A DNA stretch of 64,000 nt from Nannocystales bacterium (GTDB taxonomy: Bacteria; Myxococcota_A; Polyangia; Nannocystales; Nannocystaceae): the NCBI GenBank assembly GCA_050633305.1, contig JBOEGF010000008.1, positions 128,001 through 192,000 on the forward strand, given 5' to 3'. A program made the position numbers and the translations under genes. Shown one piece after another: positions 11,849 to 42,724 of this stretch; position 1 is the first letter of the stretch; every line of letters begins with the position of its first letter. Under the pieces are notes generated by a model, which ran no database searches, was not told the DNA's origin, and saw only the letters and a list, made by a program, of their open reading frames with translations.

Positions 11849-13153
11849 TCACTCAACGGGCATACGTGCGCCGAGGCTGGCCTTCGCAGCGGCACTTCGG
11901 GGGATCGCGTCAACCGCAACACCGCCCGCCAACACCGATGGCGTGCCGTCCGAGAGATCGACCCACGCCAGTGCCAACTCGGATCCAACGCGCTCCAGGT
12001 GAGGGAAACCGGCGCGGCGCGACGCCTCGGTCGACGCGACTCGCAGGGGCTCCGAGCGTTCCCCGGAGCGGTTCACGCGGCGGATCCGAATCTCGGCGGC
12101 CTTCTCGACCGCCTCGATCCACACCACCGCCACGGAGTCATCGTCCAGCCAAACGAGGTCGACTCTTCCCAGGGGGTTGCCATCGTCTACTGCGACAGGC
12201 CGCGAGAACGGGCGGTTCCCATCCGCGAAGGCGACATGGACAGCCCCCACTTTCGTCGCGCCGGAGAACCACGCGACGGCAAGCGCCTCGCCCCGCGCCG
12301 ACACCGATGGACCGTTGACCGGGCACCCGTCGATGCGCCAGTCATCAACCCCTACCCGGCGCCGCTGCTCGGGCCCAGGTCCGGCGAGCCAGATGTCTCG
12401 GACTTCATTCTCGTCGCGGTCTCGGTACGCGACAACTGGACCCCGGGGGGTTGCACTCGCGGCGGTTTGACAGCAGTCGCACACGCGCTCGTCCACGACC
12501 CGGCGGTCGATGATCCCGGACTCCGACACCGTCGCCGACCAGAGCTGCACGGCCCCGCCGTGGCTCGTCGTCGATGCCCTGCCGTCCAACCAGAATGCAG
12601 TGGTCGTGCCGCTGGGGTCGGCCGCCCATGAGATGAATCCGAACTCCGGGCCCTCCAAAGCGTCCGAGACGGGACCCGGTTCGACCCAAGAGCCATCGGG
12701 GCGGGTCCGAGACCATTGCAGGTCGTAGCCATGCTCATCGCGTCGCTGCGGCCAGGCCGCGATCCAACCGTACGAAGTGGGCACCACGCTTGGCAGGTCC
12801 GCCCAGTTCTGGAGGAGCTCGGGGTTGGAGACGACGGTCTTCGTGGGTCCCTCATGTCCCCATTGCCGGGCACGAAGGCGGTGCCCCTGGCCATCCGGCT
12901 CCAGCCAGCTCAGCACCGCGCCGGAAGCACCCGCCGTCAAGCGGGGCGAGCCGGCGCCCGGTCGGGTGTCGAGAAACACCGGCTTCATCGGGAGCTGGCC
13001 GATGCCCGGGGCTTCAGCCTCGACCACGGGAGCTTCCGCGGGCGCGGGTGCCTCTTCCTTCGCACAGCCGACAGGAGTCAGAGCCACCGCGAGCACAAAG
13101 CAGATTGCAGGGCAGCTCGAGGACACCCCCGTAGGGTGGCACAGGCGCGACAT
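11849..13153 (-). CDS. Lipoprotein with sialidase/BNR-like beta-propeller
   Basis: Lipobox PVGC; NWADLP, CDCCQT, YRDRD..EVRDI and GCPVNGP motifs; ATG 5 nt after the upstream stop. Confidence 0.7.
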   Translation of the reverse strand: MSRLCHPTGVSSSCPAICFVLAVALTPVGCAKEEAPAPAEAPVVEAEAPGIGQLPMKPVFLDTRPGAGSPRLTAGASGAVLSWLEPDGQGHRLRARQWGHEGPTKTVVSNPELLQNWADLPSVVPTSYGWIAAWPQRRDEHGYDLQWSRTRPDGSWVEPGPVSDALEGPEFGFISWAADPSGTTTAFWLDGRASTTSHGGAVQLWSATVSESGIIDRRVVDERVCDCCQTAASATPRGPVVAYRDRDENEVRDIWLAGPGPEQRRRVGVDDWRIDGCPVNGPSVSARGEALAVAWFSGATKVGAVHVAFADGNRPFSRPVAVDDGNPLGRVDLVWLDDDSVAVVWIEAVEKAAEIRIRRVNRSGERSEPLRVASTEASRRAGFPHLERVGSELALAWVDLSDGTPSVLAGGVAVDAIPRSAAAKASLGARMPVE

Positions 13154-13158
13154 GACAT

Positions 13159-16100
13159 TCACCCCGGAACGGGAACACCCAACGTCGTGCAGATCGACTC
13201 CAGGACGTCGCTTCTCCGACTCGCCCACGTTGCAGCGTCCACGTGCAGCACGGTCCATCCCCGGAGCCGGAGGACCGCAGGACGATGCACGAACTGCTCA
13301 AAGGCCGAAGCACCCACCGCCCCCTCGTCGGTCATGACCGCGAGCGTGTAGGCTTCCTCGCCGGACTTCCCGACCGCCAACGGGATGCGGAAGTCCGAGG
13401 TTCCCATGTGCAGGGCGCAGCGCAGGCCCGTGGACTCGAGCGCCAACATCACCTGACTCGCCAGGGGCAGATGGCCGTCGAGCTTGGACCCAACCGCGAG
13501 CGCCTCCGCGGCAGCACGAGGTGTTCCGCGCACACCATCGAGAATACGCTCGGCAACCTCGAACCGGCGCTTGGACAGGGCGTGCGCATAGTCGAGGTAT
13601 CCCTTGAACAGCCGTGGACCTGTGTGCATCGAGTTGCCAACACGCAGCAACGCGGGGTCGAAGGAGGACACCACGTAGCACTCCGCCTTGGCTCGCGAGA
13701 TCGCGACGTTGAGCCGCCGCTCTCCGCCGCGCTGCCCCAGCGGGCCGAACCGAGCCGGCACATACAGCTCGCCCTCCCCCCCGCGACGTTTGCGATGCAC
13801 GGGGGCGTGGCCCAGGGAGAACACGATGACGTCGCGCTCGTCGCCCTGGACCGACTCCAGGTTCTTCACAAACGGGCGCTCGTCCAGCTCCTCGTGGGTG
13901 CTCGCCGTCTGCCACAGTCCCGCGAAGGTATCGTCATCGTCGAGTCGGGACTCGATCTGGTCGAGGATCGCAGCGCGCTGCTTGAGGTTGAACGTCACCA
14001 CGCCCACGCTCGGCGGCTTCGGCCGCCCGAGTAGCTCCGCGAGCAGCTCGACCACGCGCGAGGCCTCCACATGGTTGACCCCGCTGTCGTACGCGCCGCC
14101 CTCGACAGGAAGCCAACGCAGCGCCGACTCACCATGGGGTCCTGACGTGGAAGGGATGGTGAGGAGGTCCCCTTCGTACATCGCGTGGTTGGAGAACGCG
14201 ATCAGCTCCTCCTCGCGGCAACGGTAGTGCCACTTCAGGCCAGCGTGTGGACACCGATTGCGGGTGAGCGAGAGCAGCGACTCGGCGGCGAACATGTCCC
14301 GGGTCTGGGCCTGCGCTTCGGTCAGGTCGTCGTCCTCGGTGCTGCTCGAGCTCGCCTTGAAATACGAGGTCGGCGGCATCTGCTTCTCATCGCCCGCAAC
14401 AACAACCTGTTTGGCTCGGAGAAACACCGGCAGCCCAGATTCGACCGTGCACTGCGACGCTTCGTCGAAGATCACCAAGTCGAACAGCGGTGCCCTCGGA
14501 AAGAGCACCGTCATCGTCTCCGGCGAAACCAGCCAGCACGGGAGGACGTCGAGGATTCCGTCGTCCGCGAAGTCGCGCACGAGTTGCCGAAGCGGCATCA
14601 AGCTGCGTGACTTGGACGTCTCCTTGAGGAGCGACTCCTTGACCTTCTGCTCCGGCGTTCGGCGAGCGCGGTACTCGGCGTCCGGGATGGACAGCAGGTC
14701 GGCCTGATCCAGCGTCGCATTGATGCCCTGAACCTCGAGATCCGCGATGTCGCTCTCCAGCGTGGCGAGCTTGCCGATCGCTTCTTCGGCCCGCTGCCCC
14801 TGCGCCGGGCTGCCCAGGTCTCCCAGCGCAGGCAGAAACGCCTCGAGACGGCGCAGGTGGGCGTCGCCCCACGCCCGCGACAGCCCTTCGCGCCATGCCC
14901 TTGCGTCCTCGTCTGGGCTCGAGGTCCGCAGTGCATCGAGCCACACCCGGGCATCCGCGTGCACGATGTCGGTCTGGGCAAGCCAACCGTCTGCCTCACG
15001 CAGGCGATGCCCGTCGGCGCGAAGACGCGTGGCAAACGTCGGAAGGGCATCCAGCTCCAACGAGCCCAGGAAGGCAAACCGGGCGACCGCAGGGGCAAGC
15101 GCAGCCCGGACCTCGTCGTCCGCACGACGCTGTGCCTCGCGATGTTCCAGCATGATGCGAAGCGCTGCGAGCTGGGCGGCGTTGCTCGGCGGAGCCAGGC
15201 CAAGCACGCCAAGTGCTTCGGCGTGGATCCGCACGACCGTCACAGCCTCGGCCGAGGCCCGAAGCGTCTCGACGCTGGTCTGCGCGGCAGCGGCATCCTT
15301 GGGGGTCAGCTCCGGACGACCAAGGCCTTCGAACGCGTCGCGAAGCGCCTCCCAGGCCGTCGCCGCATCGATCCTCTGTTGTAGCTCCCCGAGGAAATTG
15401 GCGCTGAAGCCATCGGCCGCGCGTTCGGGCCAAACCTTCGGCAATGCATCCCGGACCTCGCCTCGTGTCCGCCACCACAGCGGGGAGAAGAACCGAACCA
15501 GTCGCCCGGCAAAGCTACGAAGCACCGCCACGTTGCGGGTGAACGCGTCGGTTGGAAGTGCCAACGGCGTGCCATGGGTCGCGAGCGCCGTCGATTCCGC
15601 CGACCATGCCGACGTCACCGCTTCAACGTCGAGGGAAGCGCCCGACCACACGGCGCACACCAGCGCCTCCGCTTGCTCGGCGAGCTCGAGCAGTGTGCGT
15701 ACAGCCGCGATTCCGTCGGCGGCCATGTGCAGCGTCGCGACAGGCACCGGGTGTTGTTCCCGCAACGGCCTGGACGTCTCCGCGCGCGCGACCGAGTCCG
15801 CCGTGACGCGCTGCAGAACAGCCAAGTCCTCATCGCCGAGGTCTGCCAGGCTCGAACGCTCGCCCTGGCACCGCCACCACCCGGCCGGGTCCCAGAGTTC
15901 GCCGTAGGGGTGCAAGCGCTCGACCAGTTCCAGCAGGCGGGTGAGGCCCTCCCGCGGGAGGTCCACGAGCGAGGGAGCCTTCATTGGAGGGTCTCCCCCT
16001 GCGAGCAGGGCCAGCAGCTCGCCGACACACAGCCCCACCTGTGGGTCTACATGCGCAAGCGTGCTGCGGCGGGTCTCGAGTGTCGTTCTGGCCCGCTCGT

Positions 16101-18876
16101 GGTCGGCCTGCAACACATCGGCTCGGGTCCGGTTGTGTTTGCGGGGCTTGAAGTCCTTGAGGCGGGCCGAGATCTTCGTGAACAACGCCTTGCGGTCGTC
16201 GCCGACGTCGTGGACGAGCGCGACGGCATCGTCGACTCCAACCCCTGCGAGGCGTTGCTGCACGACATCGAGCGCTGCCCGTTTCTCCGCAACAACGGCG
16301 ACCCGCGCTCCACGACGAAGCGCATCGGCCACCATGTTGACGATGAGCTGGCTCTTCCCGGTCCCCGGCGGTCCATCCACCACAGTGACCAGGTTCTTGG
16401 CGCACGCTGACGCGACGGCGCGCTGACTGGGGTCCGAAGGCAGCACGGGCCACCCTGGAACATGCTCGGGGATCGCAGGAGACGCGTCGCTTCGCAGACC
16501 CGCGGGGAGGAGCCCAAACCCGGCCGAGAGCACCTCGGCGAGCGGACGCGCTCCCTCCTCCAGTTCGCGAAGGAGCGCGTCGTAGTCATGCAGGAGCTCC
16601 GAACTCGACTGCGGGAACAAGCCCAGCACCGCGCACTCTTCCACGATCAGCAGCGCGTCGTCTCCGTCCAGCACATCGTCGCGGTCACGGAACGCACCGA
16701 GTGTTGTCCCCTCCACGCCAATCGAGACCCCAACCGCGCGAAGGCGGTCGATCAGCGCGGGCACATCCCCGGCGAGACCGTCGAGCTCTCGGGCGAGGTC
16801 GTCGGGAAGCGCGAGTCCGGCCTTGTCGAATAAGAGCCGCAGCAACGCCCCGTTCGCGACGGCCTCCTGGTCTTCGCGCGGCTCCAGCGAGAAGCCACGA
16901 GCGCCCCGCCCATCGCGTTCGAGCCGCACGGGACGAAGCACCAACGGCCCGCGCACGCCGTACGACTCCCCGGGGTTCTCGGCGACCTCGACCCGACCGA
17001 GCAACACCGGGTAGCCGATGCACAGATCGTTGGCGCCCGTCTCCTCCCGAGCGTCGCGCGCCAGCCGGTCGAGTTGGCGGAGTTCGTCGGCACAAGCACC
17101 GGCCGCTTCCTGCCGCCCGGCGTCTTCGGGCGTCACCAAGACCGCGGTTTTCCCGGCCTGCACCAGCGCAAGCGCTCGTTCGGGGGTGCCCTTTCGAACG
17201 GCCTCCAAACGGAACAGGTCAAAGACCCGGCGGCTGCGTGTGACCGACCGCAGGCGCACCGACGGACTGCGACCGTCCCCGGAGATCAGCGTGTCGCGCA
17301 GGCGCGCCAACGCGGCCAGCAACGCTTGCCGGTCCGCGGGCAACGCGGGGTCTTCAGCCTCGACGGAAGCCACCCGAGTCCGGCTCCGGAGCGAGACCCG
17401 AGCATCCAGGGACACGGACGAGAGCGGCGGCACGACCTCGACCTCCCGTTGTTCCAAGAACCCCGCGACGCCCTGGAGCGCATGGTGGTCATCTTCTTCG
17501 GCCCCCATCAGCCGAAGCAACCGGCGCGGGGAGATCGCGGTTGACCCGGTCCGGTGCACGGCATCGGCCAACGCCCCCAGCGCGTCGCGAACCTCAGCCA
17601 TTCGCGCGGGGAGCGGGATGGAGGTCGGCAGCTCCTCCGCCGCATCGAGCTCAACCCCCTTGGCGGCCGCCACGGGACCGAGCCAAGTCCGAAATGCCTC
17701 GCCTGCTCCGAGCGCCTCTCCAAGCGCCAAGACCATTCGAAGCTCCCTGGGATCGACAACGTCATCCGCCCCGATGACATGCGAGACCAGCAAGAATAGG
17801 CGGCGTACCAGGTCCTCGCCGCCAGCCCGCACCAACCCGGCGGTCTCGTAGAACTGGGCATGGGCCGCCTCGGGCTCCAGCGATGCGGACCAGTCGGCCA
17901 CATGCGAGCCGAACGCATCCTCGAGTGCGGCCAGTTCCTCGTCCGAGACCTCCCCGTCCGCGCCCGCGACAAGGACGCCGCATGCCAATGCGCACTCGAA
18001 CACAAACGCGGGGAGCTCGGCTCGCTCGTCCTCGATGCGCAGCGACCCGCCCCCCGACACCGCGCTCAGCTTCGCGGAGATCTCAGCATCGATCTCTTCG
18101 AGTGGGCGACCTCCAGTGCCTCCGGTAGCGCTGTGGAACCGGTCACTCTGCGAGAAGTGCCACAGCGCCCAAACCCGCAGCGACGACGCGGGGACCTCGG
18201 TCTGCGTCCGCACATGCTCCTTGCACTGCTCGAGATACGCCCCGGTGTCGTCTCCGAGCGTCTCCCCGCGCAGTCCGGTGGCTGCGATCATCTCGAGCCG
18301 GAGCGCGGCGTGCAGGTCTTGGCACGCCAGCAAGCCAAACCGGTCTGCCGTGATCTCTCGGGCCAAGACCCCGCGCTGCGTGAGTGCGACCGTCTGCGGA
18401 TCGAGGAGCCCCCGCCGTCCCATCGTGACCGCGACGCACAGCGCATCACCGCCCGTGTCTTGGGGACCGTGGGCCAAACAGTGCCCAAGTTCGTGTCCGA
18501 ACAATGCCCTCGCCGCACCATCGTCGAGCAGCGCGAGAAGTCGTTCGGAGACCTCGAGCATCATCGGTTCGGCAACTCGATGCAACGCGAGGTTCTCGTG
18601 CGCATCAGCGCGGAGCAGCTCGTGCGAAGCGGCCAGCGCGAAGGTCTGCTTCACCTCTTCGATGCGTTGGTGCGCCGCAGGGGCCATCGAAAGAGGAATC
18701 CGTCGGCCTTCTGCGAGCAACCGTTGCCGGACGCGCTGCGGGTCCGAGGGCACAATCGCCCTGCGATGGGCTTCGTAATCCACGATCGTGGCCGCAAGAG
18801 CCTCGGCGATTTCCCGCTCGAGGCCGAAGCGGACACGATCTGCATCGAGGTCGACAAGGACCGCGCGAACGCTCAT
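13159..18876 (-). CDS. Multidomain protein: M48-like peptidase + TerB + DUF4011 + SF1 (AAA_11/AAA_12) helicase + Vsr/REase-like C-terminus
   Basis: HELGH...EITADR; ADGEVSDEE and ADDVVDPRE; REETGANDL; GPPGTGKS, DEASQ, GDEKQMPP, HYRC, VQGDERD, RRLNVAISRAK. Confidence 0.85.
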   Translation of the reverse strand: MSVRAVLVDLDADRVRFGLEREIAEALAATIVDYEAHRRAIVPSDPQRVRQRLLAEGRRIPLSMAPAAHQRIEEVKQTFALAASHELLRADAHENLALHRVAEPMMLEVSERLLALLDDGAARALFGHELGHCLAHGPQDTGGDALCVAVTMGRRGLLDPQTVALTQRGVLAREITADRFGLLACQDLHAALRLEMIAATGLRGETLGDDTGAYLEQCKEHVRTQTEVPASSLRVWALWHFSQSDRFHSATGGTGGRPLEEIDAEISAKLSAVSGGGSLRIEDERAELPAFVFECALACGVLVAGADGEVSDEELAALEDAFGSHVADWSASLEPEAAHAQFYETAGLVRAGGEDLVRRLFLLVSHVIGADDVVDPRELRMVLALGEALGAGEAFRTWLGPVAAAKGVELDAAEELPTSIPLPARMAEVRDALGALADAVHRTGSTAISPRRLLRLMGAEEDDHHALQGVAGFLEQREVEVVPPLSSVSLDARVSLRSRTRVASVEAEDPALPADRQALLAALARLRDTLISGDGRSPSVRLRSVTRSRRVFDLFRLEAVRKGTPERALALVQAGKTAVLVTPEDAGRQEAAGACADELRQLDRLARDAREETGANDLCIGYPVLLGRVEVAENPGESYGVRGPLVLRPVRLERDGRGARGFSLEPREDQEAVANGALLRLLFDKAGLALPDDLARELDGLAGDVPALIDRLRAVGVSIGVEGTTLGAFRDRDDVLDGDDALLIVEECAVLGLFPQSSSELLHDYDALLRELEEGARPLAEVLSAGFGLLPAGLRSDASPAIPEHVPGWPVLPSDPSQRAVASACAKNLVTVVDGPPGTGKSQLIVNMVADALRRGARVAVVAEKRAALDVVQQRLAGVGVDDAVALVHDVGDDRKALFTKISARLKDFKPRKHNRTRADVLQADHERARTTLETRRSTLAHVDPQVGLCVGELLALLAGGDPPMKAPSLVDLPREGLTRLLELVERLHPYGELWDPAGWWRCQGERSSLADLGDEDLAVLQRVTADSVARAETSRPLREQHPVPVATLHMAADGIAAVRTLLELAEQAEALVCAVWSGASLDVEAVTSAWSAESTALATHGTPLALPTDAFTRNVAVLRSFAGRLVRFFSPLWWRTRGEVRDALPKVWPERAADGFSANFLGELQQRIDAATAWEALRDAFEGLGRPELTPKDAAAAQTSVETLRASAEAVTVVRIHAEALGVLGLAPPSNAAQLAALRIMLEHREAQRRADDEVRAALAPAVARFAFLGSLELDALPTFATRLRADGHRLREADGWLAQTDIVHADARVWLDALRTSSPDEDARAWREGLSRAWGDAHLRRLEAFLPALGDLGSPAQGQRAEEAIGKLATLESDIADLEVQGINATLDQADLLSIPDAEYRARRTPEQKVKESLLKETSKSRSLMPLRQLVRDFADDGILDVLPCWLVSPETMTVLFPRAPLFDLVIFDEASQCTVESGLPVFLRAKQVVVAGDEKQMPPTSYFKASSSSTEDDDLTEAQAQTRDMFAAESLLSLTRNRCPHAGLKWHYRCREEELIAFSNHAMYEGDLLTIPSTSGPHGESALRWLPVEGGAYDSGVNHVEASRVVELLAELLGRPKPPSVGVVTFNLKQRAAILDQIESRLDDDDTFAGLWQTASTHEELDERPFVKNLESVQGDERDVIVFSLGHAPVHRKRRGGEGELYVPARFGPLGQRGGERRLNVAISRAKAECYVVSSFDPALLRVGNSMHTGPRLFKGYLDYAHALSKRRFEVAERILDGVRGTPRAAAEALAVGSKLDGHLPLASQVMLALESTGLRCALHMGTSDFRIPLAVGKSGEEAYTLAVMTDEGAVGASAFEQFVHRPAVLRLRGWTVLHVDAATWASRRSDVLESICTTLGVPVPG

Positions 18877-18891
18877 CGAGCGCAGCGTACG

Positions 18892-19686
18892 TCACAGCGG
18901 GCCGCGCATGTGCACGAACCGAAATGGGACCCGCGCCCCTGCCTCGACCAGTCGCTGCGTGAAAGCGTCGACGTCTTCACTCACGACGCCCATCTCGGGT
19001 CCCGTCGCGTGCGCCCGCAGGGCGTGCAGCAGCGCGGTCGCGACCTCGACCGACTCCGCTCGGAACGGGAACGATCCCTGCCGCGCCAGGTCAAAGGTCG
19101 CGACGCCGCAGGGCATTGACCCGTCGACGAGGACCGCACGAACGAGCCCTGTGGGGCGGGACCGCACCGAGGCAAGCTGCCCCATCGGAAGCTCGAAGCG
19201 TTCCTCGAGCAGCGCGATCTGTTCCGGGTCCGGGTCGATGACCCCCGGGGTCCCCGACGCCGCGGGCAGCGAGTCGACAAGCGCCGGAGGAAACCGCAGC
19301 GAAGTACACGGGTGGTGAACCTCCAACCCCATAGATGCATAAAGCCCGAGCGCCGCAGTGTTGTCGTCCCGCACGTTGAGACGCCAGCTCGAGCAACCGG
19401 CACCCCGCATCTGCGACACGACACGATGCACCAAAGATCGCCCGGCACCGGTCCGCCGCGCCTGCGGGTCGACGACGAGATGCCGAATGTATCCGTCGTC
19501 TCCGAAGACCTGGGCGAAGCAGTACCCAACCGGCTGCCCTTGGGACTCGGCGATGGTGCTCAGCGGCGCAAGTTCGTCTCGCCATCGCTCCGGGGAGGGG
19601 GTCGGGTCCCCCGACTCCAACATGGGAAACCACCGCTCGAAACACGGGTAGTCGGAAGGCCGCCCGGGGCGCAGATGAATCCCCAT
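18892..19686 (-). CDS. GNAT-family N-acetyltransferase
   Basis: LVVDPQARRTGAGRSL acetyl-CoA motif and NTAALGLY; start set at ATG 19686. Confidence 0.85.
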   Translation of the reverse strand: MGIHLRPGRPSDYPCFERWFPMLESGDPTPSPERWRDELAPLSTIAESQGQPVGYCFAQVFGDDGYIRHLVVDPQARRTGAGRSLVHRVVSQMRGAGCSSWRLNVRDDNTAALGLYASMGLEVHHPCTSLRFPPALVDSLPAASGTPGVIDPDPEQIALLEERFELPMGQLASVRSRPTGLVRAVLVDGSMPCGVATFDLARQGSFPFRAESVEVATALLHALRAHATGPEMGVVSEDVDAFTQRLVEAGARVPFRFVHMRGPL

Positions 19687-19764: not shown

Positions 19765-22338
19765 GTGCCCAGACCGAATCGAGGAGGTCCGGCGAGCACC
19801 GAGCACACGCTCACCGACGCCGGACTGCGGCGGCGGGTCACGCTCCAAGCCGGCGACCGCGTCGGCCGATACCGAATCCTGCACACGCTTGGTTCGGGAG
19901 GCATGGGCACCGTCTACGCGGCGACCGACCCCGACCTCGACCGAACCATCGCGATCAAGGTCTTGCATGACCGTCCGGGTCGGAAGGTACGAGCGCAAGC
20001 CCTGCTTCACGAGGCCCAGGCGATGGCTCAGTTCTCCCACCCCAACGTGGTGACGGTCCACGATGTGGGCACCCATGAGGGACGGGTCTTCGTCGCGATG
20101 GACTGGGTCCGTGGACCTACCCTGAGGTCTTGGATGAAGGGCCGACCTTGGGACGCAGTGTTGCGGGCATTTTTGCAAGCTGGCCGAGGACTGGCCGCCG
20201 TCCACGCCGCCGGACTGGTCCACCGTGATTTCAAACCCGCGAACGTCATGCTGCACCCCGGCGGGCGCGTCGTCGTGATGGACTTTGGACTCGCGCGACC
20301 CAGCGATGACAGCAGCGGGCAAGCCGAGTGTTCCCCAATCCGGAGCGCTCACAACACGTACGACGACGACGTCAGCCGTGCTGGATCGGTGCAAGGCACC
20401 CCCGCGTACATGGCTCCCGAGCAGCACCTCGCGTTCGACGTTGACGCCCGTGCCGACCAGTTCAGCTACTGCGTCTCTGTCTTCGAGGGTCTGTTCGGCA
20501 AGAGGCCCTTCCGTGCCCGGACCGTCACCGAGTTGGTCATGCGGATCTCCGCAGGCGAGTTTGCCGATGTTCCGCGCAACGGCGTGCCACCGCGCATCCG
20601 CCGAACGCTGACCCGAGGCCTGGCCGAGCTTCCCAAGGACCGCTGGCCCAACATGGAGCGTCTGCTCGACCGCCTACAGCCCGCGGCGCGTGGCACCTGG
20701 ATGATCTGGGGCGCAGGGGCGGCCGCGTTGTCGACCGTCGCTTTTGCCGCCATTCCCCCGGCCGATCCGTGCGAGACCCGCTCAGACGCCGTTCGTGAGC
20801 TGTGGTCCAAGCAGCGCCGCAACACGCTCCTGACCGCCTTGCGCTCCTCACCCAAGCCGTTTGCCGACGAGACCGCGCAGCGAGTGGACACCACCATCGC
20901 GGCCTACGTGGATAGGCTCGCTGATGCACACGACGAGGCATGCCAGGTGAGCATCGACCCGACGTTGCTCGACCGACGGACTGCGTGTCTGAGTCAGCGC
21001 GCAGGGGCGGTCCGCGCCACGACCGATGCGCTCACCGCCTCGGCGGAAGATGGACTGCAGAAGGCCGTACAGGTGCTCGGACACCTGCCCGACGTCGAAG
21101 CCTGTCTCGACCCCGAGGCGCTCGCCCGGACCCACGAACTGCCCGCAGACGAGGCAAGGCGGGACGAGATCGGGCACGCCCGAGACGCGATCAGCGAGGC
21201 TCTCGCAATGAAGGAGGCGGGGGATCTCGAAGGTGCATACGCCCGCGCCAAGGCGGCGTTGGTTCTGGCCCGAGACGCTGGCTTCTCCCCGGTCGAGGCA
21301 GAAGCCCTCAACGCCTGGAGTGCAGCGCAGGAAGGCCGAGGAGACTATGCCGAAGCCGCCGCAACCTCCGAAGCTGCGTTCCACGTCGCACACTCGTCCC
21401 ACCACGACGTCGAAGCCCTCCGAGCGACGGTGCAGCTGGTCTACGTCGTCGGGTACCGACTCCAGCAACCGGACACGGCAGACGAGTGGTTGCGACACGC
21501 CGCCGCGTTGCTCTCCCGGATCGAACACCGCGGACTGGAGGCTCGGCTGATCAACAACGAGGCCACCCTGGCCTACAGCGCGGGTGACTATGACGGCGCC
21601 GTGCGAGGGTTCGAGCGGACCGCCGAGCTTCGCGAGTCCCTGCAAGGGCCCGAGCACCCCGACGTCGCCGCCGCGCACAGCAACATGGGGCTGGCTCTCA
21701 CCCGGCTCGGTCGTCTCGAAGACGCTCTGCAACACCACGCCCGTGCCCGCTCGTCGTGGGAAGCCTCGCTGGGGCCCTCGCATCCCATGGTCGCGATCTC
21801 TGTCCACAACCGAGCCCTCGTGTTCGAACAGATGAAGCATCTCGACGAGGCCGCGGCCGAGTACGAGCGGGCTATCGAGCTCCGGATTCGCAGCCAGGGC
21901 GCGGAGCACCCCTCCGTGGCCTTGTCTCTGAACAACCTTGGCCACGTGCGCAAGGACCAAGGACGCCCGCTGGACGCACTGGAGCTACACCAACGAGCGC
22001 TCGCGCTGTGGCACGAGGCGTACGGCCCCGAACACCGCAGGGTCGCCGAGGCGTTGGGCGGGATCGCCGAGGCCCTGAGCAAGCAATCGCGGTTCGAAGA
22101 AGCCTACCGGTTCGCGGACCGAAGCCTGTCGACGATGGCCGCGGTGGTGGGGACCCACCACCCAGACTTCGCCCACACCCTGATGACGCAGGCCGAGATC
22201 CTGGTCGCCCAGGGCGACGTCGGCGGTGCCATCGCGCGCTACCAGCAGGCTCGTTCGATTTTCGTGAATGCGCAGGGAACCGACTCGGCGATGGTGAAGC
22301 ACATCGACGCGGGCCTGAAGCAGCTCGCCACGCCATGA
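19765..22338 (+). CDS. Ser/Thr protein kinase with TPR repeats
   Basis: LGSGGMGTV, AIK, HRDFKPAN, DFGLA and GTPAYMAPE; TM segment; HPxVAxSLNNLG TPR repeats. Confidence 0.93.
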   Translation: MPRPNRGGPASTEHTLTDAGLRRRVTLQAGDRVGRYRILHTLGSGGMGTVYAATDPDLDRTIAIKVLHDRPGRKVRAQALLHEAQAMAQFSHPNVVTVHDVGTHEGRVFVAMDWVRGPTLRSWMKGRPWDAVLRAFLQAGRGLAAVHAAGLVHRDFKPANVMLHPGGRVVVMDFGLARPSDDSSGQAECSPIRSAHNTYDDDVSRAGSVQGTPAYMAPEQHLAFDVDARADQFSYCVSVFEGLFGKRPFRARTVTELVMRISAGEFADVPRNGVPPRIRRTLTRGLAELPKDRWPNMERLLDRLQPAARGTWMIWGAGAAALSTVAFAAIPPADPCETRSDAVRELWSKQRRNTLLTALRSSPKPFADETAQRVDTTIAAYVDRLADAHDEACQVSIDPTLLDRRTACLSQRAGAVRATTDALTASAEDGLQKAVQVLGHLPDVEACLDPEALARTHELPADEARRDEIGHARDAISEALAMKEAGDLEGAYARAKAALVLARDAGFSPVEAEALNAWSAAQEGRGDYAEAAATSEAAFHVAHSSHHDVEALRATVQLVYVVGYRLQQPDTADEWLRHAAALLSRIEHRGLEARLINNEATLAYSAGDYDGAVRGFERTAELRESLQGPEHPDVAAAHSNMGLALTRLGRLEDALQHHARARSSWEASLGPSHPMVAISVHNRALVFEQMKHLDEAAAEYERAIELRIRSQGAEHPSVALSLNNLGHVRKDQGRPLDALELHQRALALWHEAYGPEHRRVAEALGGIAEALSKQSRFEEAYRFADRSLSTMAAVVGTHHPDFAHTLMTQAEILVAQGDVGGAIARYQQARSIFVNAQGTDSAMVKHIDAGLKQLATP

Positions 22339-30007: not shown

Positions 30008-30075
30008 GACGCCGGGTGTCGGGGCGAAGTGTCGGGCGTACGGTTCATGGGCACGTACCCGACCGGACCGCGTCC

Positions 30076-31140
30076 ATGACTTCACCAGCGAAACAGCGCG
30101 CCGCCGCCGTCCTCCAAGACCCCCGGTGGGCAGCGATCCTCTCTCGAGGCGAGGGCAGCTTCCTCTACTCGGTCAGCACGACCGGGGTCTACTGTCGCCC
30201 TTCATGCGGGTCGCGACGGCCCCGACCCGAGAACGTCGCATTCCACGAGGACGCCGAGGCCGCCCGCAACGCCGGTTTTCGGGCCTGCAAACGGTGCGAC
30301 CCAGAGGGACCCAGCCGCTCGGAGCGACGAAGTGCGCTCGTCGAAGAGCTCTGCCGCTGGATCGAGCAGAGCGAGGAGCCCCCTTCCCTGCAACAACTTG
30401 CCGACCGCGCCGGACTCAGTCCCTCGCATACGCACCGGATGTTCAAAGCCGTGACCGGCGTAACGCCGCGGGCCTACGCCGCGGCGAACCGGGCACGCCG
30501 GGTTCGGCAGGAACTCAAGAGCGCAGGCAGCATCACCACCGCGATCCATGCCGCGGGCTACAACTCATCCGCCCGGTTCTACGAGGAGTCCAACGAGCTC
30601 CTCGGCATGACACCGACCGAGTTTCGCCGCGGTGCGGCGCAGCTCCCCATCCGGTTCGCGGTCGGCGAATCCTCGTTGGGCTCCGTGCTCGTGGCAGCCA
30701 CAACCCGAGGCGTATGCGCGATTCTCCTCGGCGACGACCCTGAGGCACTCGTGCACGACTTGGAGCGCCAGTTCCCAGACACCGAGTTGGTCGGGGCCGA
30801 CCAAGCTTTCGAGGCGTTGGTCGCGAACGTGGTGGGACTCGTCGAGGACCCCACGGTTGCCAGCACCGTGCCGCTCGACATCCGCGGGACCGCGTTTCAA
30901 CGACGGGTTTGGGACGCGCTGCGCAAGGTCCCCGCGGGCGAGACCATCAGTTACTCGGAGCTTGCCCGCAGGACCGGGTCGCCGCGTTCGGCACGGGCCG
31001 TCGCCCAAGCGTGCGCCCGCAACACCCTGGCGGTCGCCATTCCCTGCCACCGAGTGGTTCGCGCAGACGGATCTGTGTCTGGCTACCGCTGGGGGGTCGA
31101 ACGGAAGGTGGAGCTGCTCGAACGCGAGGAAAAGGCGTGA
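30076..31140 (+). CDS. ada: Bifunctional Ada regulator / O6-methylguanine-DNA methyltransferase
   Basis: YCRPSC...RACKRC zinc domain, AraC HTH, PCHRV active site. Confidence 0.95.
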   Translation: MTSPAKQRAAAVLQDPRWAAILSRGEGSFLYSVSTTGVYCRPSCGSRRPRPENVAFHEDAEAARNAGFRACKRCDPEGPSRSERRSALVEELCRWIEQSEEPPSLQQLADRAGLSPSHTHRMFKAVTGVTPRAYAAANRARRVRQELKSAGSITTAIHAAGYNSSARFYEESNELLGMTPTEFRRGAAQLPIRFAVGESSLGSVLVAATTRGVCAILLGDDPEALVHDLERQFPDTELVGADQAFEALVANVVGLVEDPTVASTVPLDIRGTAFQRRVWDALRKVPAGETISYSELARRTGSPRSARAVAQACARNTLAVAIPCHRVVRADGSVSGYRWGVERKVELLEREEKA

Positions 31141-31877
31141 ACCCTAACTCCGCCCCATCCCTTCCCCAGCCCGACATCGCAGCCCGTCTCGGTGCGATGA
31201 ACTGGGCTCGGGTGACCCAAGAACTCGATGAGGACGGGTGCGCGACACTGCCCACGCTTCTGCACCCAGCGGAGTGCGAGCATCTGCGCGCCACGTACCG
31301 CAATGGTGAGGCGTTCCGCTCGCATATCGACATGGAACGGTTCGTGTTCGGACGCGGTGAGTACAAGTACTTCGCGTACCCCTTGCCGCCTCTTGTCGCC
31401 GCCCTACGCACCGCTCTGTTCCAGCGATTGGCCGCGATCGCGAATGCCTGGAGCGCTGCGCTGGGGAACGACACGCGCTATCCCGCCGAGCACAGCGCAT
31501 TCGTCGACCGTTGCCACGCCGCCGGACAGACCCGGCCCACGCCGCTGTTGCTGCGATACACCGAGGGCGACTACAACCGCCTTCACCAGGACCTCTACGG
31601 GGAGCACGCCTTTCCCCTGCAGGTTGCCGTGCTCCTCTCCGAGCCCGGACGCGACTTCACCGGCGGCGAGTTCGTCCTGACCCAGCAGCGACCACGCGCT
31701 CAGTCCCGAGTCCACGTGGTGCCACTGCGTCAAGGCGACGCCGTGGTGTTTGCAACCCACCACCGACCTGAGCCCGGAGTCCGTGGTTTTCGGCGGGTCA
31801 ACCTCCGGCACGGTGTCAGCGTCGTGCGCTCGGGTCGACGGCATTCGCTGGGAGTCATCTTCCACGACGCGAAGTGA
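31137..31877 (+). CDS. 2OG-Fe(II) oxygenase (DUF2086-like)
   Basis: GTGA overlap with ada; FGRGEYKYF, LHQDLYGE, RHGVS and LGVIFHDA. Confidence 0.88.
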   Translation: MNPNSAPSLPQPDIAARLGAMNWARVTQELDEDGCATLPTLLHPAECEHLRATYRNGEAFRSHIDMERFVFGRGEYKYFAYPLPPLVAALRTALFQRLAAIANAWSAALGNDTRYPAEHSAFVDRCHAAGQTRPTPLLLRYTEGDYNRLHQDLYGEHAFPLQVAVLLSEPGRDFTGGEFVLTQQRPRAQSRVHVVPLRQGDAVVFATHHRPEPGVRGFRRVNLRHGVSVVRSGRRHSLGVIFHDAK

Positions 31878-39438: not shown

Positions 39439-39527
39439 AATCTCGGCTGGAGAATGCGCCTGTGCAGCCGATGCCTGTGGCACGGCAGGGGTTCTGTGGT
39501 CCACAATCGTCGCCAACTCGTACCGGG

Positions 39528-41299
<1,772 letters not shown>

Positions 41300-41303
<4 letters not shown>

Positions 41304-42724
41304 CAGCCATGCTCAATCGCCGACGCCTTCTCCAGGCCCTAGGCCTGGGGTCGAGTTCCCTGTTCCTACCCTCCCTGGGTCAGCGCAGCTTCGGGGACAC
41401 TGGCGACGGGCCTCCATGCCGCATCGCCTTCGTGATGACCTATCACGGCATCCTCTACGATGAGTGGAAGATGCGTCCGGGCGACGCGCCAGAGACCGGA
41501 CAATTCGACGCCGACATCTCGGGGCTGGACGCCTCCGAGTTCTCCACCATCCTCGAGCCCCTGGCGCCCTTTGCCAACCGCATGACGGTGCTCGATGGAC
41601 TCGACTTGGTCTCGGTCAAGCCCATGGGCGGAGGCATCGGGCACTTCATCAGCCCCATCAACGCCATGACCGGGGCCCGCACGGTGGGCGAAGACTCCGG
41701 TTCCCGCTCAACCGCCGTGTCGATCGACCAGCTGATCGCCGAAGGCATCGCCCGACCGGACCGGCTTCGTTCGGTGGAGGTCGGCATGCGCGACGAGCCG
41801 ATCAGCTACGCCACCGCGGGGCAGGCTCTGCCCCGAGAGACCCGTCCGGGGACGTTCTGGGACCGTTTGTTTCCCGGCGGTGCGGAGCCTGACAACGGCG
41901 CGCCGACCGTCGCCGCCCGGGTCCAGAACGGCCAGGCCTCGATGCTCGACCTCGTCGGGCAAGAATACGAAGCCCTGCAGCCGCGGCTCAGTGGTGAGGA
42001 TCGCCAGAAACTCGAGGCGCACCGGGACCTCATCCGGGACCTCGAGCAGCGCGTCGCAGGCTATGCGTCGGTCGACTGTACCGCCCCGCTGCCGCCCGAG
42101 GACGTCCTCAATGCCGACCCCGACCGCTACAACAAGGAAGCCAAGCAGTTCATGGACCTGCTCTCGGTGGCGTTCGCATGTGACCTCACCCGAGTTGCTA
42201 CGGTCGCGCTGACGCAGCTGCCCAACAGCGCGTTCGGAGCACCGGCCGGCGACGTCCACCAAGACTTCGCCCACCTGTGCGATCCGCCGAACCCGGATCC
42301 GACGGCCTACGAGCAGATGACGCGGTACCACCGCCACCACGCGACCCAGATCGCGGACTTCCTCCAGACACTCGACTCGGTGCCCGAGGGCGGCGGCACC
42401 ATGCTCGACAACACCTTGGTGGTCTGGCTCAACGAGATGGCCGACGGAACCCACAACCAGGACGTCTACCCGATGGTCCTGTTCGGCGGGTCCAACATCC
42501 CGCTGCGATGGGGTCGCTACCTGCGCTTCAACATGAACGGGCGCGTACCGCTGGGCTCGAACTTCTACAACAGCCAGCGCCCCTCTGGCATGCCTCAGAA
42601 CCGCGTCCTCGCCACGCTCGCCCAGGCTATGGGCGTGGGCCTCGACACTGTCGGCGATGCCGAAGTTGCGGCCGAGGGCGGGACGATCAACTGTAGCGGG
42701 GCCGTCGACGAGATGTTTTCCTGA
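41300..42724 (+). CDS. DUF1552-family protein (Tat-exported)
   Basis: LNRRRLL signal; SIDQLIA, AFACDLTRV and GTMLDNT; ATGA overlap. Confidence 0.88.

Follow-up and report, generated by a model that had tools for sequence, protein, structure and literature searches.

The stretch analysed here (the window) comprises 64,000 nucleotides of a Nannocystales bacterium (GCA_050633305.1, contig JBOEGF010000008.1, positions 128,001 to 192,000) and carries, on its minus strand, one open reading frame (ORF) for a protein of 1905 amino acids (aa). From the N- to the C-terminus, this protein joins an M48-like zinc peptidase, a TerB domain, a DUF4011 region, an UPF1-like SF1B helicase and a restriction endonuclease (REase) domain of the REase_MTES_1575 type. 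We propose, with slightly less than even confidence, that in most members of its family the helicase senses foreign nucleic acid and thereby activates the protease to act against phage, the protease of the window's own lineage being probably inactive. This proposal starts from two features of the family, namely the loss of the conserved Asp and Glu of the tail nuclease and the retention of the M48 site in most members.

Domain architecture and the M48 protease domain

The gene and its parts, with the evidence for each, are as follows.

13159..18876 (-): whole gene, 1905 aa, M48-TerB-DUF4011-SF1B helicase-pseudo-REase, the last predicted inactive (ORF and Pfam)
18049..18843 (-): M48-like zinc-peptidase domain, aa ~12-276 (Pfam M48 E 7e-4, fold matches, rate test)
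18481..18495 (-): HExxH motif, HELGH (H128, E129, H132), intact (sequence and clade alignment)
18340..18357 (-): EITADR with the third zinc ligand, E174, intact (sequence and alignment)
18175..18195 (-): HPx4R site, aa 228-234, with Val for His (V228) and an adjoining deletion
17662..18009 (-): TerB domain, aa ~290-405 (Pfam above cut-off, best fold match 2ou3)
17383..17601 (-): small alpha/beta linker domain, aa ~426-498 (DSSP)
16597..17319 (-): DUF4011 region, aa ~520-760 (Pfam at aa 594-682)
13642..16446 (-): UPF1-like SF1B helicase, aa ~811-1745 (Pfam AAA_11/12 and motifs)
16351..16374 (-): Walker A motif, GPPGTGKS (exact sequence match)
14452..14466 (-): DEASQ (exact sequence match)
13180..13458 (-): REase_MTES_1575 (Vsr-like), predicted inactive, with P1832 for Asp, M1848 for Glu and no YH motif

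The single ORF and its HELGH, EITADR, GPPGTGKS and DEASQ motifs lie exactly where a sequence-only reading of the window, made without database searches, had placed them. That reading had also taken the N-terminus for a zincin followed by TerB. When Pfam was run on separate segments of the protein, TerB (PF05099) matched aa 296-392 at 24.9 bits (cut-off 24.4), and Peptidase_M48 matched aa 109-136 at 19.9 bits, just under its cut-off of 20.3. The AlphaFold2 model of aa 1-430 (pLDDT 93, pTM 0.92) has two domains, and its VIA comparison, in which the Z-scores were middling, gave as first match the TerB structure 2ou3 (Z 9.1, rmsd 4.0, 133 aligned residues), as second 2h5n (Z 8.4), which we take to be TerB-like, and as third the M48 peptidase 3c37 (Z 8.0, rmsd 5.1, 157 aligned). 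BepA (Z 7.0) and ZMPSTE24 (6.8) ranked fifth and sixth, behind an unrelated fourth match. Foldseek with this model returned no match at E<=1e-3, and neither did a sequence search of the PDB with the N-terminal profile return one. The TerB assignment is thus supported, and the M48 assignment received these borderline scores.

According to PMC7950410, M48 peptidases are defined by the pattern HExxH-x(30,140)-HPx4R, the His of HPx4R acts in BepA as an autoinhibitory zinc plug, and Lit fits the same pattern. Two homolog searches, the second with its best 120 matches listed, gave at least 139 protein clusters at 90% identity, query included, six of them N-terminally incomplete or split. The HExxH...HPx4R pattern was present in 120 of 139 family proteins and in none of the eight of the window's clade (P0001-P0008). 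With two proteins set aside because their N-terminal parts were short, 129 remained outside the clade and eight within it; the five M48 residues were intact in 120 of the 129, and four of the nine failures were due to a missing N-terminus. By its conserved residues, the protease of the family looks active and pluggable.

The window's clade is different. In the window protein the HPx4R position reads VPASSLR, next to a deletion of roughly nine residues, and the His is kept in none of the eight clade members. Residues of HExxH or zinc ligands were additionally lost in four of the eight, and in the copy of genome G005 zinc ligands or the catalytic Glu are likewise gone. At a matched helicase distance of 0.113, the M48 distance was 0.360 in the clade versus 0.149 elsewhere, i.e. 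2.4 times faster divergence, and the TerB distance was 0.157 versus 0.176 (21 pairs from seven clade proteins against 59 pairs elsewhere, the pairs not being independent). The acidic AD(G/D)...E residues of TerB are retained in 8/8 clade members. Outside the clade, M48 is conserved about as well as the helicase (0.43 versus 0.40), and at one locus of another lineage, L093, the M48 site was lost separately. These alignments show that the constraint on M48 has been relaxed in the window's clade. Because the clade lost the HPx4R His and its M48 diverges faster, the window copy is probably a pseudo-peptidase with an inactive protease. The sequence-only reading had called the zincin intact, which holds for HExxH and E174 and fails at HPx4R.

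The window copy might instead be an active, unplugged protease, its zinc site being complete (H128, E129, H132 and E174 intact) and the loss of the plug His removing inhibition. The BepA variant H246N, in which this His is lost, behaves as a deregulated enzyme and not as a killed one (PMC7950410). We consider such an active copy highly improbable, given the further losses of ligands or catalytic Glu among the clade members and in G005, and the faster divergence of the domain than in intact lineages. A decayed protease is the reading retained below.

Downstream of TerB, the modelled order of elements in the linker would be winged-helix-like; Foldseek with the model of this region gave no match at E<=1e-3. 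The DUF4011-like region of the sequence-only reading was confirmed by Pfam, and the remaining UPF1-like motifs that it had announced are present as GDEKQ, HYRC, QGDERD and RRLNVAISRA. The helicase, whose relatives in the PDB include SMUBP-2, Sen1 and UPF1, contains an insertion of some 500 aa whose sequence is poorly conserved.

The tail nuclease and the relatives of the fusion

The REase domain at the C-terminus (Pfam MTES_1575, aa 1807-1899, 43.6 bits against a cut-off of 38.2) and its lost residues were found here by Pfam and alignment; the sequence-only reading had listed neither these, nor the HPx4R loss, nor the two-gene lineage described below. Canonical homologs show the pattern F-R-I-D ... 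E-C-D-G ... H, in which Asp and Glu would be the catalytic residues by Vsr/PD-(D/E)xK chemistry. Both were lost in all 137 family proteins having the C-terminus, the Asp position being Pro in 130 of them and the Glu position hydrophobic or Thr. Asp and Glu are retained in 5/5 plasmid outgroups (two more that were fetched fell outside the motif cut and were not counted), and four further homologs from the phylum have the canonical residues. Among 20 more distant long representatives, Asp was kept in two; in the ten of these 20 that were aligned, the Glu is missing from all nine that cover the REase region. The tail nuclease is predicted to be inactive.

When plasmids were searched with the N-terminal module, a second arrangement came up, in which an M48 gene overlaps by 4 nt a gene encoding a DUF4011-SF1-REase-WGR protein. 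Such loci are L098:8312-15003 (CP047137.1), L099-L115, and L156 and L157, the last two from genomes of the phylum. In a metagenome scan (17 loci in total) the helicase directly followed the M48 gene in all 15 loci with downstream DNA, and the 4-nt overlap was present in 10/10 gene-called loci. The M48 proteins of the two arrangements are homologous (hhalign 99.1%, M48 part only); no TerB was seen in the tail of the two-gene M48, either by hhalign alignment or by Pfam. In this form the REase keeps the Asp, with Glu and YH absent in 9/9, and the helicase has a WGR C-terminus, followed at one locus by uvrA. By eye, the first ~250 aa of the two-gene helicase are kinase-like; Pfam gave no match there. 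M48 and helicase are genetically coupled in two lineages, one fused and one two-gene.

Protease-less relatives also exist. Seventeen of the next-nearest helicase loci in the phylum were compared and comprised 11 compact helicases, two loci of the two-gene form and four with a canonical REase. The compact proteins (L146-L155 and L158; ten of 1363-1599 aa and one of 1007 aa) begin at or near DUF4011, and their alignment to the window protein starts at aa ~528. No neighbour gene common to the 11 was found. In the tree they group with the fused family, and the two-gene form falls outside (FastTree support about 0.99-1.0; labels along the re-rooted path may shift by one edge).

Of 39 other genomes close to that of the host, seven carry the fusion itself, all within the host family (7/23), and the N-terminal profile matched 13 of 300 genomes of the phylum, once in each, one match being a stand-alone M48-TerB protein. 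Among 35 GTDB loci, 30 carry the fusion (22 full-length single ORFs, six cut at contig ends and two split), and the other five are other M48 proteins. Its hosts are Myxococcota, Beta- and Gammaproteobacteria, including Nannocystaceae, Sandaracinaceae, Rhodocyclaceae (Azoarcus indigens), Thiobacillus and Hydrocarboniphaga effusa. The genes of A. indigens (L046:10007-16120) and H. effusa (L053:9797-16036) are intact members. The distribution is patchy and single-copy. Recurrence of the fusion in other genomes and in the GTDB loci ruled out an assembly artefact absent from relatives, which the sequence-only reading had named as a possible objection. No conserved partner gene was found across 280 neighbour proteins, and the N-terminal module had no match in the phage collection searched. 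In the host genome, the 1905-aa gene is the only DUF4011/SF1B helicase of this kind that was found.

Proposed coupling of helicase and protease, and its alternatives

Beyond the anatomy, we infer every step of the proposed mechanism. The helicase would engage foreign single-stranded RNA or DNA, or R-loops, in an ATP-driven manner. In the resting state of intact members, the HPx4R His would plug the zinc site as in BepA; engagement of the helicase, possibly gated by a TerB ligand or metal, would displace this plug. Once released, the protease would cleave a host protein and thereby arrest the cell under infection, in the manner of Lit, and the role left to the pseudo-nuclease would be to bind nucleic acid. 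The window copy has kept helicase and TerB and has probably dropped the protease output, which would be a reversion towards the stand-alone helicases, its closest relatives. A stricter version, in which the helicase gates a His-plugged M48 as the only catalytic output of abortive infection, in both one-polypeptide and two-gene forms, with the pseudo-nuclease as a binding module, is possible and rather doubtful.

To look for defence neighbours, PADLOC was run at 34 loci (26 + 8) on neighbouring genes, most of them no more than three genes away from the fusion. This set leaves out three close relatives, two duplicates, one locus without neighbours and one stand-alone protein; locus genes were called by our own codon-based script. 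Six of the 34 loci had defence neighbours, i.e. Wadjet I, Wadjet II on an integrative and conjugative element (ICE), BrxA, a DrmD-like SNF2 protein, a type I restriction-modification (RM) system and BrxHI/SngC, and weaker matches to PDC-S27 and PD-Lambda-2B were obtained at two more. The controls were 18 arbitrarily placed loci of 9 kb each, taken from four related genomes (mostly myxobacterial); they gave curated defence neighbours at 0/18, generic non-kinase matches at 4/18 and kinases at 7/18. Under the curated rule, Fisher p was 0.066 (6/34) or 0.024 (8/34) against 0/18; the curated split is analyst judgement, and related loci are not independent. A Ser/Thr kinase lies near several fusion loci and was rejected as a partner, its frequency at the random loci pointing to chance. 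In two Rhodocyclaceae (L040, L044) the fusion is directly 3' of guaA, which we take to be an island integration site, and in Azoarcus indigens (L046) it lies on the ICE, upstream of Wadjet II.

Several observations weigh against the proposed coupling. When any non-kinase PADLOC match was counted mechanically, fusion loci and controls were alike (9/34 versus 4/18, p=0.51); PADLOC found no defence neighbour at 26 of the 34 fusion loci, none beside the gene in the window and none at the nine two-gene loci. The defence-island signal is weak and suggestive only. The tail nuclease retains a family-specific His in 134 of 137 proteins, within a conserved His-Arg-Pro, together with two acidic residues, and a rewired REase site is possible. 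M48 activity was apparently lost at least twice while the helicase was retained, and in the BepA precedent cited above loss of the plug His was a deregulating change instead of a killing one. Furthermore, Glu and YH are lost, with the Asp kept, in the 10 compact helicases with a complete tail, and no M48 gene was found within 1.0-4.4 kb upstream of the 11. Because these relatives without M48 have an eroded nuclease, the alignments place nuclease erosion as either older than the protease or independent of it. A one-step scheme in which the protease replaced the nuclease was rejected on this ground, and it is only the full disappearance of the Asp that, in the proteins aligned, goes with the fusion.

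The same relatives bear on a reading in which the helicase with an altered REase is the effector and M48-TerB an optional regulator, acting by self-processing, inhibition or as a scaffold, that is gained and lost. All 11 compact helicases lack a nearby M48, the M48 residues disappeared from the window's clade and, once more, from L093 with helicase and TerB conserved, and the His-Arg-Pro and acidic pair of the REase persist, as this reading would have it. Yet the catalytic residues of M48 are kept in nearly all other members, across several phyla, M48 is there conserved about as well as the helicase, and the fused family also lost the Asp that compact and two-gene forms keep. We regard an optional regulator as distinctly unlikely.

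A housekeeping role in surveillance, with the helicase tracking DNA damage, R-loops or RNA complexes that have stalled, and the protease clearing proteins stuck on them, for which SprT/Wss1 proteases offer a comparison, is also unlikely, though it would fit the ordinary genes that surround 26/34 fusion and 9/9 two-gene loci, and the third-position GC content (GC3) of the window gene (0.80, inside the range of 0.78-0.86 in six window genes). The WGR end of the two-gene helicase and its one uvrA neighbour, a weak SprT-like match of the two-gene M48 (E 3e-4) and the exonuclease-fused variants P0046 and P0055 point the same way. It sits poorly with a fusion present in merely 13/300 phylum genomes and 7/23 of its own family, with copies on an ICE, after guaA or near Wadjet, BREX and RM genes, and with named relatives that are anti-phage proteins.

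Taken together, the anti-phage switch from helicase to protease remains the reading that we favour for the family. The sequence-only reading had put forward the window gene as a protease-coupled defence system. This finds support at the level of the family, with its lost nuclease residues and largely intact M48, and is weakened for the window gene, where the M48 of the clade is decayed and defence neighbours are absent; the defence co-occurrence that it had suggested as a check gave a suggestive signal under the curated rule and none under the mechanical one.

Neighbouring genes, variants and known systems

One co-oriented gene precedes the fusion gene.

18892..19686 (-): GNAT gene, upstream, separated by a 15 nt gap, common to the genus only

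This neighbour is not part of a system. On the other side, a co-oriented ORF of 415 aa (11849-13096, minus strand) has a lipoprotein-like start; Pfam and NCBIfam gave no match for it, and a homolog in the same place was found only in genome G005. A Ser/Thr kinase-TPR gene (19765-22338, plus strand) is divergent from the GNAT gene. Farther away on the plus strand are a pair formed by Ada and an alkylation-repair oxygenase (30016-31877) and a DUF1592/DUF1552 gene pair (39462-42724), presumably of a type typical for myxobacteria. Recent import of the fusion gene is unsupported, as its GC and GC3 resemble the surroundings and no tRNA is present. Among the sequencing runs listed, none of RNA contained the gene; in the one DNA run the gene is covered by short pieces, and this run may itself be the source.

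Several variants were seen among the relatives. Two-piece fusions occur at L041:9959-16133, L050 and L096; L041 comes from a long-read assembly and its pieces overlap by 41 nt, so that an indel error is possible. At L037:9014-16165 the fusion bears an N-terminal Ser/Thr kinase and lies in an operon with the DrmD-like SNF2 protein and an SMC-like ATPase. The variants P0046 and P0055 have an RNase_T exonuclease at the N-terminus, and 33 of 139 relatives have a conserved winged-helix-like C-terminal tail, which is missing from the window protein. Stand-alone soluble M48-TerB proteins of about 400-450 aa are encoded at L023:7693-8883 in the window's genome, at L024-L026 and at L097, with HExxH, Glu and HPx4R intact in the copy of the window's genome and in L024-L026; they are a possible source of the fused module. 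Myxobacterial proteins of 270-490 aa (L056-L059, and probably many among P0166-P0277) have a fusion-type M48 (THPEH) without TerB, and some of them end in a coiled-coil-like 'LEARF.EL' tail.

The best named match of the window protein was Prometheus ProA (NCBIfam NF058533, E 6.7e-157, aa 811-1898). Like ProA, whose domains are listed in PMC13700489, it is the product of a single gene with DUF4011, an UPF1-like helicase with a large insertion and an MTES_1575 REase. Unlike ProA, it scores 524.5 bits against a cut-off of 1500 (a canonical homolog reached 2310), adds the N-terminal M48-TerB and has lost the REase Asp, Glu and YH. The C-terminal DUF3320 of ProA gave no PF11784 match in the window protein, which ends 6 aa past the REase. 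Hhe (NCBIfam NF042953, E 1.2e-100; PADLOC PDLC02194, E 1.9e-71), placed among HEPN systems by 10.1101/2024.10.26.620412, has the same DUF4011-helicase-Vsr-like chassis, but the window protein reached 337.8 bits against a cut-off of 2000 and the match covers only the C-terminal helicase and REase. No HEPN domain was found in Pfam scans of the window protein, and the structural model of its aa 1-430 corresponds to M48-TerB. PDC-S37 (PDLC05009) was the best PADLOC match (E 4.7e-154), with 513 bits versus 1237-1483 for two canonical homologs and a best stretch that begins at aa 811, past M48-TerB, and covers profile positions 291-1335 of 1550. S37 is not mentioned in the available main text of 10.1101/2024.01.29.577857, and its definition may lie in the supplement. 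By these scores, the window protein is related to ProA and Hhe through its chassis but is not a member of either.

Other systems share single traits with the fusion. The MTES_1575 giant proteins (PMC3710099) also join a peptidase to an SF1 helicase and a Vsr REase, and in 2013 their authors proposed protein cleavage as an extra line of defence; as described there, the peptidase is transglutaminase-like, accompanied by domains of the HEPN and wHTH (winged helix-turn-helix) types, without M48 or TerB. Lit, BepA, HtpX and Ste24 resemble the N-terminal domain in the HExxH...HPx4R pattern and in fold matches, whereas the window copy lacks the HPx4R His. Lit, which cuts EF-Tu upon sensing T4 Gp23, works as a protease on its own and is set off by a phage protein, while here protease and helicase are bound up with each other. 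Shango and Bunzi are anti-phage systems with TerB-domain proteins, and Shango also has a helicase; both are multi-gene, the Shango helicase is of the DEAD/DEAH type, and no M48 or DUF4011 appears in the descriptions compared. The M48-TerB-DUF4011-helicase architecture, which the sequence-only reading did not recognise, was likewise not described in the literature searched, whose coverage stops short of the original Ter-system, Hhe and Prometheus papers. The literature compared also included 10.1101/2022.11.11.516204, PMC7824862, 10.64898/2026.10.19.760177, PMC11090510 and 10.1101/2022.05.11.491447.

ProA and Hhe protect against phage, and in the literature covered the coupling of their helicase to an output is unsettled. 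If the proposed reading is true, an autoinhibitable M48 on a branch with an eroded nuclease would be a helicase-to-protease switch, which was not found in the literature searched, and a helicase-activated counterpart of Lit, with TerB gaining a defined place in the signalling chain. The window gene, as a protease-decayed allele, is the wrong first choice for testing the mechanism of the family, and protease-dead alleles of its kind would serve as natural controls. The system occurs in nature in fused and in split form, and also without the protease or with a decayed one, and Azoarcus indigens and Hydrocarboniphaga effusa are cultured carriers.

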